Assembly: GCA_951406725.2 (NCBI GenBank)
Contig: OX597818.1
Coordinates: forward strand, 60,698,001-60,762,000
Origin: Octopus vulgaris
Taxonomy: Eukaryota
Length of the DNA: 64,000 nucleotides
Direction: 5' to 3'
Both the position numbers and the translations under genes were made by a program. This document shows positions 20,461 through 59,737 of the stretch, in pieces. Position 1 is the first letter of the stretch. Each line of letters starts with the position of its first letter. The notes below the pieces were generated by a model, which made no database searches, was not told the origin of the DNA, and saw only the letters and a list, made by a program, of their open reading frames with translations.

Positions 20461-21029
20461 GCGGCGAGCTGGCAGAAACGTTAGCACGCCGGGCGAAATG
20501 CTTAGCGGTATTTCGTCTGCCGTTACGTTGTGAGTTCGAATTCCGCCGAGGTCGACTTTGCCTTTCATCCTTTCGGGGTCGATAAATTAAGTACCAGTTA
20601 CGCACTGGGGTCGATGTAATCGACTTAATACCTATGTCTGTCCTTGTTTGTCCCCTCTGTGTTTAGCCCCTTGTGAGTAATAAAGAAATAGGTATTTCGT
20701 CTGCCGTTACGTTGTAAGTTCAAATTCTGCCGAGGTCGACTTTGCCTTTCATCCTTTCGGGGTCGATTAAATAAGTACTTAATCCGTTTGTCTGTCCTTG
20801 TTTGTCCCCTCTATGTTTAGCCCCTTGTGGGTAGTAAAGAAATAGGTATTTCGTCTGCCGCTACGTTCTGAGTTCAAATTCTACCGAAGTCGACTTTGCC
20901 TTTTATCCTTTCGGGGTCGATTAAATAAGTACCAGTTATGCACTGGGGTCGATATAATAGACTTAATCCGTTTGTCTGTCCTTGTTTGTCCCCTCTGTGT
21001 GTAGCCCCTTGTGGGTAGTAAAGAAATAG
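20461..21029 (+). mobile_element. SINE family A trimer with TSD
   Basis: One head and three bodies (the second has an internal deletion). TSD TAAG(T/G)TTAAAAGGGATA. Confidence 0.92.
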
Positions 21030-21487
21030 GTAAGGTTAAAAGGGATACATAATGCTCGAGCGTTCGACCTTTAAAAATTATATTCCAAAGGAGGAAATGA
21101 TTCCGTTTGCAGTTTGCTGAAATCTTCCCTACGTGCTCTTGGTTGAACCTAGACAATTTTTATTTAATGTGTGTGAGTGTGTGTGCGCGCTCGTTTGTAT
21201 ATATGTGTGTGTACGTGTGTGTTTGTGTATGTGGTTACTCTTGTATCAGGTTCTCACCAAAAGTTATTTTTCAAAAAGGGTTCGCATTTATATCAGGCGT
21301 CTCTATTAAAAGCAGTTCGTTACCCGAAATGTACGTAAAACGATTTGTTTGTGATGAGAGGCGTTCATAAACCGAATATCCACCGTGCTTAGAATTTTTT
21401 AAGTTGATAACCTAATAACTTCGATTTAACTCTTAATATGCATACGTACTCTGACATACACATTCAGGTAGCCATGTATAAAACATG

Positions 21488-23914: not shown

Positions 23915-24490
23915 ATTCTTTTTTCCATATATTTTGCTGTAACTATCTTCCACGCTTTCCAAGACTGTGATATCGGAGTCTATATTCGCTTCAGAACCAC
24001 AGTAAGGTATTTGATGTTAAACACCTTAATGCAAATTTGAAGACATTCCACGCCCTTGTTCGAGAGATCCTTTATACAGATGATGTAGTTCTCATTCCTT
24101 AAACCGAGGAGGGCATACACGCTATATTGGATCTCATCTCTAGAGCTTGTATTGCTTTTGGACTTACCATCAGTCTGAAGAAAACAAAGATCATGTTCTC
24201 TCAGCTACCAGGCCAACACTATATGGAACCTAACATCTTTGTCCAGGGTACAAGATTAGATGCGGTTGTCTTGTTCATCTACCTTGGCAGCACTCTCTCT
24301 AGAGATGGCTCCCTTGATTCTGAAATAAACTTGAGAATTGAAAAAGCCAGCAAAGCATTTGGAAGGCTTGAAAATCGCGTGTGATCTGATAGAGGTATCA
24401 CCTTCAAAACCAAGCTTACTATCCATAAATCTTGCATTTTAACGGTCCTCCTGTACTCTTCTGAGAACTGGACGACATATCGGCTCCACA
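23915..24490 (+). mobile_element. RTE-clade (BovB-like) RT segment, inverted relative to its C-terminus
   Basis: ILFSIYF...GVYIRFRT...REILYTDD...FGLTISLKKTKIM...FIYLGSTLSRDGSLDSEINLRIEKASKAFGRL...LLYSSENWTTYRLH. Confidence 0.92.
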
Positions 24491-24671: not shown

Positions 24672-25389
24672 CATACATATATGCCTACATACATATAACT
24701 ACATTCGAAAATCGAAACGTAGAATTCTTAATTGAGAATTGAGAATAAGCATACATAGTACCGAATATGTTTTAATGCAACGAGATTATATGTATTTAAA
24801 CACGTATGTACGTAGGCATTATATCTACCCTCAGCATTACTCAATATTATCCGGTGGCATTATTATACAGCCAGGTTCATGTTTGGGTATTCGTCGTGTG
24901 TGAATATAAAATTAAAGAAATTTGGGTCAAGAAGAATGAGTACGGTTGGACAGTTAGTTTTCATCACTATAATTGTTTGCACCCAATGTGGTTCTCAAAA
25001 ATACAGGTATTTGATTATACAGGTATTTGCTTAATGAGATCAAGTTGTATTTCCTCGGGTGATATTCGAGCGTTGTCTCCGTTAGTTTAAAATCTTTTTG
25101 AAGGCCATCCAATCTGTCCTCTTGGTTTGAATGCTGCAGCAGTTGGTAGATTCATGTTGATTGGTGGTAGAGCGTGTTCGTTGTACTGCTATGAGTGGTA
25201 GTCGATGGGTGTTCTGTTACCGACTGATCGCTGACCGGTTCTTCATGGTTGGCTGCACATGCGAATTTTATTAGCTAACCTTCAGTATTTAGTGATAGGA
25301 TATATACGCGCATACACACACAAAATCGAAGAGAGGTGACGGAACGATATGAAAGTGTATTAGTTTGACGCTCGAGAAAATGGAAAGGT

Positions 25390-25425
25390 CTTTTATGTTT
25401 CGAACTTACACTCTTCGACAGAAAG
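25390..25425 (-). ncRNA. Minimal HHR-like motif with CUGUCGA core, in a PLE-like repeat (about 25325-25480)
   Basis: CTTT-CTGTCGA-A-GAGT gtaa GTTC-GAAACATA^AAAG. Confidence 0.45.
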
Positions 25426-25500
25426 GAGTAAGAGGAAATAAATAGAGAGAGAATGAAAACAACGTGTTGAGTTCAGTGTTCCAATAGAGCGATGCATATA

Positions 25501-25581
<81 letters not shown>

Positions 25582-25629
25582 TAGGAAGAAATGGAGCTGA
25601 ACGAAGATTTAACAAAATTCCTTTTTATT

Positions 25630-25715
25630 ATTTTCTACATATGTTTCAAAGGTTGCAAAGTCCCTAATTCGGATTGAATAAGGAGTCCATTTTGCAGCCT
25701 TCTCTTCAGGAAAAT
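25630..25715 (-). ncRNA. Type I hammerhead ribozyme (mirror copy)
   Basis: Reverse complement of 25863-25948, with one C.A mismatch in stem II. Confidence 0.75.
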
Positions 25716-25862
25716 CCAGGAACTTAATTCTCCGACAAAATGCACAGCAAGCTTTTCGACAAACGCTCACGAGGAGCCCATGGAATAAATGGCACAAACT
25801 GTCTATCACTAGCGTTTGTCGAAAAGCTTGCTGTGCATTTTGTCGGAGAATTAAGTTCCTGG

Positions 25863-25948
25863 ATTTTCCTGAAGAGAAGGCTGCAAAATGGACTCCTTAT
25901 TCAATCCGAATTAGGGACTTTGCAGCCTTTGAAACATATGTAGAAAAT
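25863..25948 (+). ncRNA. Type I hammerhead ribozyme with extended stem II
   Basis: ATTTTC-CTGAAGA-GAAGGCTGCAAA...TTTGCAGCCTTT-GAAA-C ATAT G-TA^GAAAAT. Stem I is 6 bp, stem II is 12 bp around a 31-nt insert, stem III is the palindromic ACATATGT, and cleavage is predicted after 25942. Confidence 0.8.
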
Positions 25949-26271
25949 AATAAAAAGGAATTTTGTTAAATCTTCGTTCAGCTCCATTTCTTCCTACACT
26001 AAATATATAAAACTTCAAATTTCCGCACTAGGGCACGGATATTAGGCCCCATGGTCGTAACCTCAACCGTGATTTTCTGTTGTGATTTTTGCTACCCAGG
26101 TATCGGTTATCATTTGAATAATCCGTAATAAGATAATTCATTTATCTACTTCAATATATATATATATATATATATATGTAGGGAGAATTCACGAAAAAAA
26201 ACAAAAGACGAAGACAGGTAGTGTACTTAACAAACAGATGTATTAGTATAACGCTCAGGAATAGAAAAAGT

Positions 26272-26307
26272 CTTTTACGTTTCGAGCCTACGCTCTTCTA
26301 CAGAAAG
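26272..26307 (-). ncRNA. Minimal HHR-like motif with CUGUAGA core, in a PLE-like repeat (about 26178-26362)
   Basis: CTTT-CTGTAGA-A-GAGC gtag GCTC-GAAACGTA^AAAG. Confidence 0.55.
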
Positions 26308-26365
26308 GGACACAGAAAAAACAAGGAGAGAACAAAATGTGTGTAGTGGCTAATGATCTATGTGT

Positions 26366-26409
<44 letters not shown>

Positions 26410-26651
26410 GTTGCAAGGATCTTTTCCTAGTAAAAATTAATTTGATAGACTGCTTAAAAACATGAGTGATTCTTCAATTAATGTTCGGTTGGATTTTATA
26501 ACTTTACATGAAAATTAGACATTAATATGTTTACACACGTACACACATAGACACACAACATATATACGGGGAGGGTGTCTGCATACGTCATGCTGGATGG
26601 ATGTTTCAGTCTCTCTCTCTCTCTCTCTCTGCACACACATACACACACATA

Positions 26652-27207
26652 TATTCTTTTCTACTCTAGGCACAAGGCCCGATATTTCGGGGAAGGAGCC
26701 AGTCAATTAGATCGACCCAAGTACGCAACTGGTACTTAATTTATCGACCCTGAAAGGGTGAAAGGCAAAGTTGACCTGGGCGGAATTTGAACTCAGAACA
26801 TAAAGAGAGACAAAATACCTATTTCTTTACTACCCACAAGGGGCTAAACATAGAGGGGACAAACAAGGACAGACAAAGGGATTAAGTCGATTACATCGAC
26901 CCCAGTGCGTAACTGGTACTTATTTAATCGACCCCGAAAGGATGAAAGGCAAAGTCAACCTCGGCGGAATTTGAACTCAGAACGTAGCGGCAGACGAAAT
27001 ACCTATTTCTTTACTACCCACAAGGGGCTAAACATAGAGGGGATAAACAAGGACAGACAAAGGGATTAAGTCGGTTACATCGACCCCAGTGCGTAACTGG
27101 CACTTATTACATCGACCCCGAAAGGATGAAAGGCAAAGTCAACCGCGGCGGAATTTGAACTCAGAACGCAGCGGCAGACGAAATACTGCTAAGCATTTCG
27201 CCCGGCT
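26652..27207 (-). mobile_element. SINE family A trimer
   Basis: Three bodies; the distal one carries the alternative tail. Confidence 0.88.
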
Positions 27208-27251
27208 TATATATATACACATAAATACACACACACACATACACACACACA

Positions 27252-27300
<49 letters not shown>

Positions 27301-28790: not shown

Positions 28791-29269
28791 TGCACCCCCT
28801 GTACGATTATTCGTTATTTAATATATATAAAACCGTTCGTAAACATATTTATATACATAGTTTTAACACATGTCAAAATATCACTTGTATTAGACTCACG
28901 CCAGCTAAACTGATCTATTCCTAGAATTTTCTTGATTTATGAAAGCATTTATGGTTTCCACACGGAGACCATTAAAAATGTGATGTCTCAAAATACCAGA
29001 ACGTATTATTGCAACATCCAAAACATATCATTTACTTGAGAGCTGTTTAGTCAGAAATGGAAAGGTGGGTATGGAAGATCTGATAGTATCTAAATGATTT
29101 TGCCTTTAATGATTGGTTGAGTGTTCCATAGCCTAAAAGAAATCTACCAATATAATGGAAGGTCTCGATTACAGCCTTAAGCGCTGCCCCATTAAAGGAA
29201 CGCAAATAAACCATTATGTTTTTAACACTTACCCATTGTACATAAGCTCTCAAATGTATTTGAGCGAAA

Positions 29270-29985
29270 CTGCCTAACAATTCTGATGAATTTTTCATTG
29301 AGCCGAACTTTCCTATAATCTTCCAAAACCTTTCACGACTGACGGCATGAAAGGCCTTGGTTAGATCAACATACGATGTGTATAGACACCTGCTCTATTC
29401 TTGGAACTTTTGAAGCCATTTGCGTTCCTTTAATGGGGCAGTGCTTAAGACTGCTATCGAGACCTCATGGTCTTCCATTATATTGGTAGATTTCTTTTAG
29501 GCTTTCTTGAAGCCATACTGAGTCCCTGGCAGATAACCGTCTTACATGTGCAGAGAGAGTCCTCGAGGTTAACGAGGACTCTTGCGAGTGTCTTCCCAGC
29601 AATGACAAGGAGAGAAATTCCTCGGTGGTTGTCACAGGACTCCCTGTTTCCCTTCCTCTTATAAAGATGGACAATAGAAGCGGCGAGCTGGCACAAACGT
29701 TAGCACGCCGGGCGAAATGGTTAGCAGTATTTCGTCTGCCGCTACGTTCTGAGTTCAAATTCCGCCGAAGTCGACTTTGCCTTTCATTCTTTCGGGGTCG
29801 ACAAATTAAGTACCAGTTACGCACTGGGGTCGATGTAATCGACTTAATACCGTTGTCTGTCCTTGTTTGTCCCTTCTAAGTTAAGCCCCTTGTGGGCAAT
29901 ACAGAAAAAAATAGAAGCGTCCTTGAGCTCTTAAGGAACAAATTCCTCTTGCCACATTGTCCGAAAGAAATATGCGAGCTAACCT
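29270..29985 (-). mobile_element. RTE-clade RT N-terminal fragment, interrupted by SINE A and rearranged
   Basis: FRTMWQEEFVP*ELKDASI | VHLYKRKGNRESCDNHRGISLLVIAGKTLARVL ... YVDLTKAFHAVSRERFWKIIGKFG..EKFIRIVRQF. Confidence 0.88.
29679..29908 (+). mobile_element. SINE family A monomer nested in the RTE fragment
   Basis: AATAGAAGCG is duplicated at both ends, and the RTE frame resumes across the insertion. Confidence 0.92.
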
Positions 29986-34898: not shown

Positions 34899-36049
34899 GG
34901 CGCCGCGCTGGCAGAACCGTTAGCACGCCGGGCGAAATACGTAGCCGTATTTCGTCTGCCGTTACGTTGTGAGTTCAAATTACGCCGAGGTCGACTTTGC
35001 CTTTCATCTTTTCGGGGTCGATAAATTAAGTACCAGTTTAGCACTAGGATCGATGTAATCGACTTAATCCGTTTGTCTGTCCTTGTTTGTCCCCTCTGTG
35101 TTTAGCCCCTTTTGGGTAGTAAAGAAATAGGTATTTCGTCTGTCTTCATGTTCTGAGTTCAAATTCCGCCGAGGTCGACTTTGCTTTCATCCTTTCGGGG
35201 TCGGTAAATTAAGTTCCAGTTAAGCACTGGGGTCGATGTAATCGGCTTAATCCCTTTGTCTGTCCTTGTTTGTCCCCTCTACATTTATCCCCTTGTGGGT
35301 AGTAAAGAAATTGGTATTTCGTCTGCCGTTACGTACTGAGTTCAAATTCCGCCGAGGTCGACTTTGCCTTTCATCCTTTCGGGGTCGATAAATTAAGTAC
35401 CAGTTAAGCACTGAGGTCGATATAATCGACTTAATCCGTTTGTCTGTCCTTGTTTGTCCCCTCTACGTTTAGCCTCTTGTGGGTAGTAAAGAAATTGGTA
35501 TTTCGACTGCCGTTACGTACCGAGTTCAAATTCCGCCGAGGTCGACTTTGCCTTTCATCCTTTCGGGGTCGATAAATTAAGTACCAGTTAAGCACTGGGG
35601 TCGATGTAATCGGCTTAATCCGTTTGTCTGTCCTTGTTTGTCCGCTCTGTGTTTAGCCCCTTGTGGGCAGTAAAGAAATAAGTATTTCGTCTGCCGTTAC
35701 GTTCTGAGTTCAAATTCCGCCGGAGGTCGACTTTGCCTTTCATCCTTTCGGGGTCGATTAAATAATTACCAGTTGAGCACTGGGGTCGATGTAATCGACT
35801 TAATCCCTTCGTCTGTCCTTGTTTGTCCCCTCTGTGTTTAGCCCCTTGTGGGTAGTAAAGAAATAGGTATTTCGTCTGCCGCTACGTTCTGAGTTCAAAT
35901 TCCGCCGAGGTCGACTTTGCCTTTCATCCTTTCGGGGTCGATAAATTAAGTACCAGTTAAGCACTGGGGTCGATGTAATCGACTTAATCCCTTTGTCTGT
36001 CCTTGTTTGTCCCTTCTGTGTTTAGCCCCTTGTGGGTTGTAAAGAAATA
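34899..36049 (+). mobile_element. SINE family A hexamer: one head plus six bodies of about 184 bp inside one TSD
   Basis: Units restart at GTATTTCG near 34947, 35131, 35314, 35498, 35682 and 35867. Flanks are TATTAAGTGTTTTGGTGGTT and TATTAACTGTTTTAGTGGTT. Confidence 0.93.
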
Positions 36050-36370
36050 TGTATTAACTGTTTTAGTGGTTAGAAACTCTCGAGAGAGATAGACAGGAGA
36101 AGTTCCTTTGAGAAGTAACTAACCCCTCAGATAAGTGTTTTGGCCCTTAGCCTATAACACTCTAAGGGGTGCCCTTCTGCTGAAATTTACTTTTTAGCCA
36201 CCCGGATATCGGAGACTTGTGCAACTAAACTACTTGGAGATTTTATCTAATTTTGATTTCTCTCCGTTGACTCAGCTTACAAAACTTATATTTAAAGAAG
36301 AAAGAACGTTAGTTGTCATGGTTGCAGTGAAATACATCACTCAAAATTACTTCCATTAAAACGAAAATAT

Positions 36371-44225: not shown

Positions 44226-45059
44226 GGCGGTGAGCTGGCAGAAACGTTAGCACGCCGGGCGGAATGCTTAGCGGTATTTCGTCCGTCTTTACGTTCTGAG
44301 TTCGAATTACACCGAGGTCGACTTTGCCTTTCATCCTTTCGCGGTTGATTAAATAACTACCAGTTGTGCACTGGGGTCGATGTAATCGACTGGACCCCTC
44401 TCCAAAAATTTCGGGCTTTGAGCTTAGCTTAGATTAGAAAAGAATACGAGGTGCGCTGAAGGCGGCGAGCTGGCAGAAACGTTAGCAGGCCGGGTGAAAT
44501 GCTTAGCGGTATTTCGTCTGCCGCTACGTTGTGAGTTCAAATTCCGCCGACGTCGACTTTGCTTTCATCTTTTCGGGGTCGATAAATTAAGTACCAGTTA
44601 CGCACTGGGGTCGATATAATCGATTTAATCCGTTTGTCTGTCCATGTTTGTCCCCTCTGTGTTTAGCCCCTTGTGGGTAGTAAAGAATTAGGTATTTCGT
44701 CTGCCGCTACGTTCTGAGTTCAAATTCCGCGGAGGTCGACTTTGCCTTTCATCCTTTCGGGGTCGATAAATTAAGTACCAGTTACGCACTGGGGTCGATG
44801 TAATCGACATAATCCCTTTGTCTGTTCTTGTTTGTCCCCTTGTGGGCAATAAAGAATTAAGAAACGTTAGATCGCCGGGAGAAATGCTTAGCGATATTTC
44901 GTCTATCCTTATGTTCTCAGTTCAAATTCCACGGAGGTCGACTTTGCCTTTCATCCTTTCGAGGTCGATAAATTAAGTACCAGTTGCGTACTGAGGTCGA
45001 TCTAATCGACTAGCGCCCCCCCCCAAAATCTCAGGCCTTTCTCCTAGAGTAGAAAAGAA
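44226..45059 (+). mobile_element. SINE family A monomer (44226-44445) followed by a trimer (44461-45059)
   Basis: Consensus head and bodies, with both tail types present. Confidence 0.88.
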
Positions 45060-50832: not shown

Positions 50833-51619
50833 GATGGTTCTTCTTGAGTTTCATACAGCTCTGCAGATAAAGAAACAAATATTTAGCGTAAAAAAATATT
50901 TTATTCTTAAATTTTTACAAAAAAACTTTTCCTTCAAAACATCATTCTCAAGTGCTGTTGAATTTATCTGGAAAAGATCTATGTAAATATATGAGTGTGT
51001 GTGTGTGTGTGTGAGTATGTGTATGTATACCATACTAAAATATTTTTTATATCCATAGATTTTTACAGTCACTACATTAGTATATTAAATAGATTCTGTA
51101 GAAACATAAGACTGTCGTAAATATCTGTTACGTCTATACAATCTCACAGTGGACAAGAAAAGCGGGATCGACTGCACGGCGCCATTATAACTATCTGCAT
51201 ATTTCATCTGTAACCGTTTTTCCTCCGTTAGCTGCCGTTGCCAAGCTGTATTTTAAGCCACCGTTTTGCGATTATAACTAAAACAGAATTTGCATATTTG
51301 ACACATTTTCAGTAATTTGAATGAATATTGTTGTATCTGCATGTATGTATGTATGTATGTATGTATGTATGTATGTATGTATGTATGTATGTATGTATGT
51401 ATGTATGTATGTATGTATGTATGTATGTATGTATGTATGTATGTATTATGTAGGCTTGATTTTTCTTTGAGTTGAAGTTGTTTTAGAGAGTGTTCAAGCC
51501 GGTCGCTAACAAAGTGACAAGGCTTTTTGCGTTAAAAGGATTCCCGCTGTTTGTAAATATGTAACTAAGTTGGTATTTTGTTTGAACTGTCGATGTATAC
51601 ACCCAAGTGTGTACATCTG

Positions 51620-51980
51620 TTCACATACTGCATAGTGCCAAGGACTCCAAATTTGCCATCAAGATGTAGGACAAGATACTGCGATAGCCTGGGCTTCAGA
51701 GGTCCACAGCTCTTCAATATCCTCTCGAAGGACCTGAGAGACCTGCATGGGGTAGATGCAGATGTCTTCAAAATTAAGCTGGACCTCTTCCTGTCAGGTG
51801 TCCCAGATGAACCAACTTCATGGCAGGTGGTGTAGATGAGGGCAGCTGCATCAAACTCTCTCATGCACCAAATGTCAATTGCTAAAAAGCATTCGTGAAG
51901 TAAAATCATGTAGCAACACCGAATGGCGGTGCCCCAGCATGGCTACAGCTCGTGAGCTGAAACTAGATGAAATGAAAAAC
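51620..51980 (+). mobile_element. CR1-clade LINE 3' end
   Basis: YCIVPRTPNLPSRCRTRYCDSLGFRGPQLFNILSKDLRDLHGVDADVFKIKLDLFLSGVPDEP...AAASNSL; tail GGCGGTGCCCCAGCATGGCTACAGCTCGTGAGCTGAAAC. Confidence 0.88.
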
Positions 51981-54139: not shown

Positions 54140-54630
54140 ATGTGTCCTCCTTTTTATCAACGAACTCAAATATGTTCTCTTTTTGATCAACGAACTCAAA
54201 TATTCTGTTGTGTTTGGGGAGAGTCATTTTCTTTTTGTGCCTTACAATTTAACACACTCACCAGTAAAATTTCCACTTTTTTCTTTTTTTATTCTCTTAA
54301 AATTTTCGTTGCATCTTGCAACCTTTTTAATAGTTTTGACTCTTGATTTCAATAGTCAAAACTATTGAAAATGTTGCAAGACGCAACGAAACTTTTAGAA
54401 AAATAAAAAATAAATAAGTGGAAATTTTACCGGTGAGTGCGTTAAATTGTAAGGCACAAAAAGAAAATGACTCTCCCCAGACACAACAGAATATGCTTCA
54501 ACACACGAACTCATATAAAGAATCTTGCAAACCAAATCCAAGAACTCAAATATATTCTCCTATTTCTACGAACTCAAATACGTCCACTTTTTGATCAACG
54601 AACTCAAACATGTCCACCTATTTTCTAACT
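54140..54630 (+). repeat. Minisatellite of about 30 bp (TCAACGAACTCAAATATGT...), interrupted by a MITE
   Basis: GAACTCAAA-type units near 54162, 54192, 54507, 54542, 54570 and 54600. Confidence 0.75.
54203..54491. mobile_element. MITE of about 290 bp, foldback along nearly its whole length, TA TSD
   Basis: TA|TTCTGTTGTGTTTGGGGAGAGTCATTTTCTTTTTGTGCCTTACAATTTAAC... pairs with ...GTTAAATTGTAAGGCACAAAAAGAAAATGACTCTCCCCAGACACAACAGAA|TA. Confidence 0.88.
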
Positions 54631-57336: not shown

Positions 57337-57488
57337 TATATATATATTTGTGTGTGTATGTGTGTATGTATATTTTTTATATAGAGTTAATCCAAACATG
57401 AAAACACAAAGAGAAAACACAACAACGCGAGGATATAGAACAAGTATAGTGTTATTGGACGCTCAGAAAAAGAAGGAAAGAAGGAGGA

Positions 57489-57521
57489 TTTAACGTTTCG
57501 AGCGGAGCTCTTCGTCAGAAA
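57489..57521 (-). ncRNA. Minimal PLE-type hammerhead motif in a repeat at about 57380-57595
   Basis: TTT-CTGACGA-A-GAGC tcc GCTC-GAAACGTT^AAA, with a palindromic AACGTT stem III. Confidence 0.65.
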
Positions 57522-57624
57522 CATAGGAAGAGGAAAGATCCAAGGAAGGGAAGACGGAAGAAAAAATCGCTAACGATACACACGCGGTCACATTTTGAAT
57601 ATATATTTAATAAAAGAATATATT

Positions 57625-59624: not shown

Positions 59625-59660
59625 CTTTCTGTCTAGGAGCGTAGGCTCGAAACGTAAAAG
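59625..59660 (+). ncRNA. Degenerate minimal HHR-like motif (CUGU core family), in a repeat at about 59600-59738
   Basis: CTTT-CTGTCTA-G-GAGC gtag GCTC-GAAACGTA^AAAG; flanks are homologous to 26178-26362. Confidence 0.45.
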
Positions 59661-59737
59661 ACTTTCTCACTTCCCAAGAAGTTTGATGTTTATTGTTTAC
59701 ACACCTGTCTTCGTCTTTTGTTTATTTATAAATTCAC

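Follow-up and report, generated by a model that had tools for sequence, protein, structure and literature searches.

We consider it probable that the hammerhead-bearing locus at 25577-26152 of the window (the whole analysed stretch of 64,000 nucleotides) consists of two 5′-truncated copies of one high-copy repeat that meet head to head within a (TA)n tract, and that both were likely placed there in one insertion event by the enzymes of a Penelope-like element (PLE), its reverse transcriptase and endonuclease. Features of PLE insertion present at the locus are an inverted 5′-truncated copy, an extension at one end only and a hammerhead in the terminal repeat. In addition, (TA)n lies on both sides and the ends of the repeat family fall in microsatellites, in which the animal-type DNA of the window, with repeats reminiscent of octopus, is rich.

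The original prediction described 191-bp inverted arms with one mismatch, bounded by (TA)n on both sides and folding around a 43-bp spacer. The arms were confirmed by their coordinates (25577-25767 and 25811-26001, 191 bp each) and by the single difference between them, T at 25653 against G at 25925; their symmetry reaches 199 bp if the adjoining TA letters are counted. The gap between the arms, 25768-25810, is 43 bp long as stated, but it is no separate spacer, since its sequence belongs to the left copy as its upstream part. The locus thus reads as two truncated copies meeting head to head between 25810 and 25811, 234 bp on the minus and 342 bp on the plus strand, and it is asymmetric, with 151 bp (26002-26152) beyond the right arm only (Table 1).

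Table 1. Positions of the elements of the head-to-head locus in the window.
Feature	Position	Strand	Remarks
Left (TA)n, likely insertion target	about 25506-25578		Any target-site duplication unreadable within (TA)n
Left copy	25577..25810	-	234 bp, 5′-truncated at 25810; ends at the shorter family 3′ end (= plus 26001)
43-bp "spacer", upstream part of the left copy, no independent loop	25768..25810	-	From contig joints and loose ends
Left-copy hammerhead motif with C-A mismatch in stem II	25630..25715	-	Predicted cut 3′ of 25636, minus strand
Head-to-head junction between 25810 and 25811	25807..25816		GCGTT at 25812-25816; likely priming microhomology
Right copy	25811..26152	+	342 bp, 5′-truncated at 25811; ends at the longer family 3′ end
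Type I hammerhead motif	25863..25948	+	6-bp stem I, CUGAAGA, GAAA, palindromic stem III; predicted cut after 25942
Helix II domain, 55 nt	25876..25930	+	Outer 11-12 pairs, internal loop, inner ~9 pairs, 5-nt loop
Predicted distal stem I	25853-25860 with 25956-25963	+	Separated from stem I by an internal loop; pairs with a probability of at most ~0.47
Optional 3′ extension ("tail"), 151 bp, one copy only	26002..26152	+	TATA-box-like start at 26004-26012
Right (TA)n	26154..26177		Read from the sequence

Contigs of four public sequencing runs, X1 (organism A), X2 and X6 (both organism B) and X4 (organism C), were aligned on the 385 bases of 25768-26152; runs from organisms D, E and F were left out of the family counts. 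X1 is possibly the source sample, X6 was only guessed to be an RNA run, none of the runs listed as containing the repeat being recorded as RNA, and contig depth gives no copy number. The four runs from three organisms placed 874, 1,222, 558 and 37 contigs on this stretch, so the hammerhead-bearing repeat is a high-copy, variable family, and every bin of the right copy (25811-26152) was covered in all four of them. The reverse complement of 25768 onwards directly precedes 25811 in other copies, a joint held by four contigs of X1 and one of X6, and loose ends before 25811 show the same spacer-to-arm order of the left copy in four contigs of X2 and five of X4. Furthermore, the spacer continues into other family sequence behind 25807/25808 (eight contigs of X1) or 25798 (two contigs of X6). 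Thus the spacer is the upstream part of the left copy, and because it is parental sequence, the real inversion point lies between 25810 and 25811. The joint of 25768 with 25811, recorded as lying on opposite strands, was considered as a recurring foldback and dropped, as it is the parental order found in the left copy.

The original proposal that the foldback element is a unit finds no support in these results: what had been taken for a spacer is sequence that the left copy has from its parent, and no contig piece listed holds the junction. As an explanation of the locus, a whole foldback copied as such, as a non-autonomous unit with a hammerhead on both strands, would suit the nearly identical arms, the two complete motifs and the microsatellite on each side, and its junction could occur in contigs beyond the 32 of 2,691 records listed. 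However, other copies keep the parental order across 25811 and lead into different sequence beyond 25808, contig depth drops at 25807-25819 in X1 (7,626 versus 61,307 and 83,596 on either side) and also in X2, with no such dip in X4, the 64-kb window contains no further copy of the hammerhead-bearing repeat family, and the RNA is predicted to form a duplex that hides both ribozymes. We therefore regard such a unit as very improbable. An assembly or read-chimera artefact of the inverted arm is the least probable of the explanations considered. Among the 32 of 2,691 contig records listed, no piece bridges the junction and the same head-to-head junction was not recovered from a second source; nevertheless the symmetry does not run past the end of the element, its two flanks are unlike each other, one base distinguishes the arms, and both ends are natural family ends.

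The latter are seen repeatedly in the contigs. The family runs into TA repeats behind 26009 (nine contigs of X2, ten of X4) and behind 26146 (two contigs of X6) and into a trinucleotide repeat behind 25994 (two contigs of X4), and there is a branch behind 25988 (23, 43 and 33 contigs). Of the recurring 3′ ends, the left copy has the shorter and the right copy the longer one, which lies 151 bp further on. Towards the other end, in the three large runs, the spacer has a summed depth ~15- to 50-fold below that of the core, a figure that gives the shape of coverage and not copy number, as 5′ truncation of family copies would produce.

Both arms carry C at the position equivalent to 25844, where 99.7-100% of the placed depth has T in all four runs. 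This private allele implies that both arms derive from one template. The one difference in 191 bp would correspond to ~0.7 million years (0.02-4, Poisson limits) if the rate given in the available part of PMC13282606 applies, an estimate that depends on a presumed taxon and ignores gene conversion. Together, the arm difference and the shared rare allele agree with the youth that had been proposed for the locus. A shared private allele and a five-base microhomology would suit any foldback synthesis, and so also a single inserted copy whose inverted duplicate arose later, without the enzymes of the element, from DNA repair or a replication foldback at the microhomology. The inverted copy, however, stops at a recurring family 3′ end with no mirrored host flank, and published fresh PLE insertions normally show this layout, so we find this origin improbable.

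For an insertion by PLE enzymes, the following course may be envisaged. The endonuclease would have nicked TA-rich DNA, and DNA copying would have begun at two places on the element RNA, near 26001-26009 and near 26152, which would account for the one-sided extension. Just upstream of the arm, one copy may have stalled and then primed anew, with the five bases GCGTT, on itself or on the second copy, giving rise to the inverted partner. Self-priming and the joining of two copies would fit the locus equally well, and the one-sided extension would require the second start. The parental continuation of the left copy, read from loose ends in X1, holds GCGTT one base from the start of the right arm's GCGTT at 25812-25816; the X6 version of this continuation differs at one letter. 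Together, these stretches make an imperfect palindrome at the junction. The microhomology is a post-hoc interpretation, given that one or two letters at the junction do not match the parental continuation. The hammerhead, as part of the parent's terminal repeat, would process its transcript, likely as a dimer or with the help of a protein. The locus itself is most likely a one-off, dead copy pair. No reverse transcriptase or GIY-YIG reading frame was seen, the contigs showing up to 30 letters beyond the aligned stretch, so that we infer the PLE identity of the repeat from its layout, target and motif; on these grounds the PLE-derived origin originally proposed is supported. A 66-codon open frame through the left copy had 13 candidates among longer proteins, none at E 0.01, and no Pfam family; it was treated as non-coding, for which the lack of relatives or of a Pfam family is weak evidence. 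A bacterial promoter scan, a method ill-suited to animal-type DNA, found nothing.

On the plus strand the motif has the anatomy originally described, that of a type I hammerhead with a palindromic stem III and a cut after 25942. Stem I pairs 25863-25868 with 25943-25948 and flanks the core elements CUGAAGA (25869-25875) and GAAA (25931-25934), and 12 pairs of stem II (25876-25887 with 25919-25930) enclose 31 nt. The palindrome of stem III, ACAUAUGU, occupies 25934-25941 and is followed by the end of GUA at 25942, after which cleavage is predicted. The type I core (CUGANGA, GAAA, UH) is present and three helices are possible, helix III having only two pairs in the monomer. A strict descriptor (six pairs in stem I, five in stem II) gave two matches in the window, equal to one independent motif, and none in 100 shuffles (6.4 Mb); a looser hammerhead descriptor gave one match in 100 shuffles of the window. 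Moreover, the stem II domain folds with a z score of -4.9, and 0 of 200 shuffles were as good. These features support a hammerhead of PLE type, type I with a palindromic stem III. The G after CUGAAGA and the U before GAAA leave it with no G10.1-C11.1 pair and with no unpaired H of the minimal PLE consensus.

A complete hammerhead with a 12-bp stem II had been assigned to each arm. The motif does occur in both, but the single arm mismatch falls inside stem II of the minus copy as a C-A mismatch, and the 12-bp stem therefore holds for one arm only. Its pair probability is 0.2-0.4 in the 234-nt minus copy versus about 1.0 on plus, and the 86-nt motif folds with -16.0 kcal/mol on minus versus -22.7 kcal/mol on plus (z -0.9 versus -2.9). 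The predicted probability of stem I is 0.3-0.5 for the isolated motif, drops to 0.1 in the arm and does not exceed 0.02 when either copy is folded whole. The self-duplex of the 8-nt stem III palindrome amounts to -7.0 kcal/mol, or -6.0 kcal/mol with the common family allele, and the stem III dimer was not chosen in predictions in which two copies were folded together. The Rfam search proposed as a check came out negative: no family reached its gathering score in the window, and no hammerhead was found among 18 matches (E up to 10) in 25200-26500. This search is a weak test here, because the textbook minimal motifs at 25390-25426 and 26272-26307 in the same stretch were likewise missed.

In the head-to-head order, the antisense arm is made before the ribozyme in read-through from either side. 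The full-length RNAs are predicted to fold into hairpins of -374.6 and -374.4 kcal/mol, with a stem II probability of 0.000 on the plus strand. Because the antisense arm always comes first and would form the 191-bp duplex, the ribozyme is predicted to be zipped in and silent in read-through RNA, and only transcripts that start between the arms would be expected to free it. The competition between self-cleavage and a double-stranded hairpin that had been suggested is thus predicted to be lopsided, in favour of the hairpin. The long duplex RNA could feed small-RNA pathways.

Helix II is the feature that sets this family apart. The core halves are separated by 55 nt, compared with no more than 23 nt across 44 rows of Fig. 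S3 of PMC4209133, a contrast that covers those rows only, as earlier rows and the structure drawings of that paper may hold longer helices. Five contig pieces among those listed (records 2, 5, 19, 21 and 27), about 80-87% alike, span both core halves without gaps; records 5 and 21 may belong to one subfamily. In records 5 and 27, which reach beyond the motif on both sides, the match is confined to its surroundings. Hence the long helix II characterizes the family, and in these alignments the likeness among diverged copies is concentrated at the hammerhead motif. The original view that the long stem II is unusual for a minimal hammerhead was thereby borne out, and it extends to the family. One X1 contig lacks 25897-25928, a part of the helix II domain.

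Variants in the helices are one-sided and compatible with pairing: 25855 lies in distal stem I, 25886 in stem II and 25938 in the palindrome. At 25855, G>A would turn a G-U into an A-U pair in distal stem I, and the 25938 variant, which makes up 34-90% of the depth, keeps the palindrome through G-U. As regards covariation of stem II, proposed as a further check, the changes seen were one-sided and compatible, and no two-sided compensatory change occurred among 40 of the 66 variant rows, which come without haplotypes. Conservation of the core was not significant (1 of 31 versus 34 of 311 positions, p = 0.15). At 25879, most of the depth (58-73%) has G>A, with no partner change in X1; with A, stem II is predicted to begin either with a mismatch or in a shifted register that leaves a G unpaired behind the core and a C bulged, each with a probability of ~0.25-0.3. 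This majority allele weakens the base of stem II. Consequently the 12 bp describe the allele of the locus copy and not that of the family.

A stronger reading would be a PLE family with a new hammerhead variant, in which the 55-nt helix II is a selected module, either for protein docking or as a partner of distal stem I that allows cutting without a second copy, the 151-bp tail marks two far-apart reverse transcriptase starts, and tailed copies carry their own TATA-type promoter. We put this forward tentatively and judge it unlikely as a whole. If helix II is selected, it would offer a natural handle on what PLE hammerheads do and on how the protein of the element activates them, and descriptors restricted to a short helix II would overlook a high-copy family. 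The literature searched contained no report of this repeat family or of a PLE with a helix II of 55 nt. Within the helix II domain, an ATG in strong context opens an 8-codon frame (25888-25914, plus strand), whose stop is removed by a common family allele, with another stop following within the core. In the anole element the open reading frame starts at stem II, and the short frame is maybe relevant in full-length copies.

Four textbook minimal PLE-type hammerhead remnants were found in the window, at 25390-25426 (minus), 26272-26307 (minus), 57488-57522 (minus) and about 59625-59662 (plus). In these, the core is followed by an unpaired A, the short helix II varies in sequence and has G-C at its base, and the palindrome is 4 bases long; some of the cores are decayed. 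Two of them lie about 150 bp from the two-copy locus, one on either side, which gives the site the appearance of nested PLE-like ends around (TA)n. At 1215-1346 lies a 132-bp palindrome, 98% perfect, without a loop and with (TA)n at its left, whose halves contain CUGAAGA and GAAAC 12 nt apart just after the centre; stem I does not form. It looks like a head-to-head pair of another PLE-like family unrelated to the main locus, and suggests that this layout is common in the window. A 295-bp foldback at 54200-54494, about 90% symmetric and flanked by short repeated motifs, has no hammerhead core according to the scans and is possibly a MITE-like element. A very frequent, presumably SINE-like 184-bp unit, its copies 80-95% alike, occurs both in tandem and dispersed at 26701-27252 and many other places, among them 34928-36055, 44255-45011 and 20489-21032. 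The short frames at 24385-24490, 29047-29394 and 51565-51942, which had no Pfam match at E 0.1, presumably resemble pieces of LINE reverse transcriptases. Hammerhead pattern scans elsewhere gave no match with the strict and one with the looser pattern in metagenome contigs, and none in prokaryote genomes and viral contigs. The one metagenome locus (L001, match at 1200-1457) lies between 32-bp inverted repeats that are 91% alike, on a contig that starts with a 170-bp foldback; showing no blastn likeness to the window and no closing helix II, it was rejected as a relative and is a chance match or unrelated.

The repeat has also to be compared with other hammerhead-bearing kinds, a non-LTR retrozyme monomer or a SINE-like family, in which case the hammerhead would be canonical-like, built of the 6-bp stem I and the distal helix. 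The predicted internal loop and distal helix of stem I do resemble canonical type I motifs, and no open reading frame was seen. Retrozymes are defined as head-to-tail tandem repeats in the available text of PMC7229834 and bioRxiv 10.64898/2026.07.22.740005, however, and there is no head-to-tail joint among the five joints listed for the 385-base stretch, a scope that leaves room for a family unit longer than these 385 bases; furthermore, helix II is far from the canonical 4-bp size. This assignment is highly improbable. With animal non-LTR retrozymes the locus shares its non-coding nature, the type I hammerhead and a relation to PLEs, and differs from them as an inverted pair. Since the same preprint, as far as its available text goes, derives animal retrozymes from PLE repeats, a retrozyme would in any case be close kin of the PLE favoured here.

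Insertions of endonuclease-bearing PLEs, in the available parts of the papers that describe them, have a pseudo-LTR, an inverted 5′-truncated copy adjacent at the 5′ end, a one-sided tail of 30-40 bp and a (TA)n target (PMC8557442), and head-to-head junctions with palindromes were read as self-priming in elements with a TATA-like motif in the repeat (PMC3846280). Our locus is alike in the head-to-head join of 5′-truncated copies, the extension at one end, (TA)n on both sides without a visible target duplication, the imperfect palindrome at the junction and the TATA-like stretch near the 3′ end. In contrast, no open reading frame was seen at it, and its 151-bp extension is four to five times as long.

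Hammerhead pairs on opposite strands 100-700 bp apart are described for PLEs in the available part of PMC4209133. The metazoan PLE hammerheads of its Fig. S3 (rows such as Saccoglossus kowalevskii (2), Drosophila willistoni and Aedes) share with the locus the type I topology, the intact CUGANGA/GAAA/UH core, the palindromic helix III, U-rich 5′ and AU-rich 3′ flanks and the opposite-strand pairs, and the G-U/A-U base of helix II and the GUA site of the locus have precedent in those rows. The locus differs by its 6-bp stem I with a predicted distal helix and by the 55 nt between the core halves; in some Naiad elements these halves are 35-50 nt apart (PMC8557442, available part). The unpaired H and the G10.1-C11.1 pair of the minimal PLE consensus (Cervera and de la Pena 2014, as available) are missing at the locus, a departure with exceptions of its kind in Fig. 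S3, and the 55-nt domain does not fit a consensus helix II of up to about 8 bp with a small loop. PLE hammerheads cut poorly alone according to the accessible text of PMC4209133, and their cleavage as dimers was reported by Lunse et al. (via the available part of the review PMC6765202). The weak stem I and stem III predicted here are in line with such published hammerheads, which are poor alone or protein-dependent.

The tested mechanism of the Poseidon element PAc of Anolis carolinensis, as given in the available portion of PMC11167929, fits the locus: AT-rich DNA is nicked on both strands, the tail is explained by two internal start sites of the reverse transcriptase, and the hammerhead is active only with the element's protein. 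The two start sites of PAc are close together, and the likeness to the locus, known here from its sequence alone, would be one of mechanism. The junction would then represent a small, datable case of priming at an imperfect palindrome. The inverted layout is ordinary for PLEs, and it is the long helix II and the long tail that make the family a modest variant.
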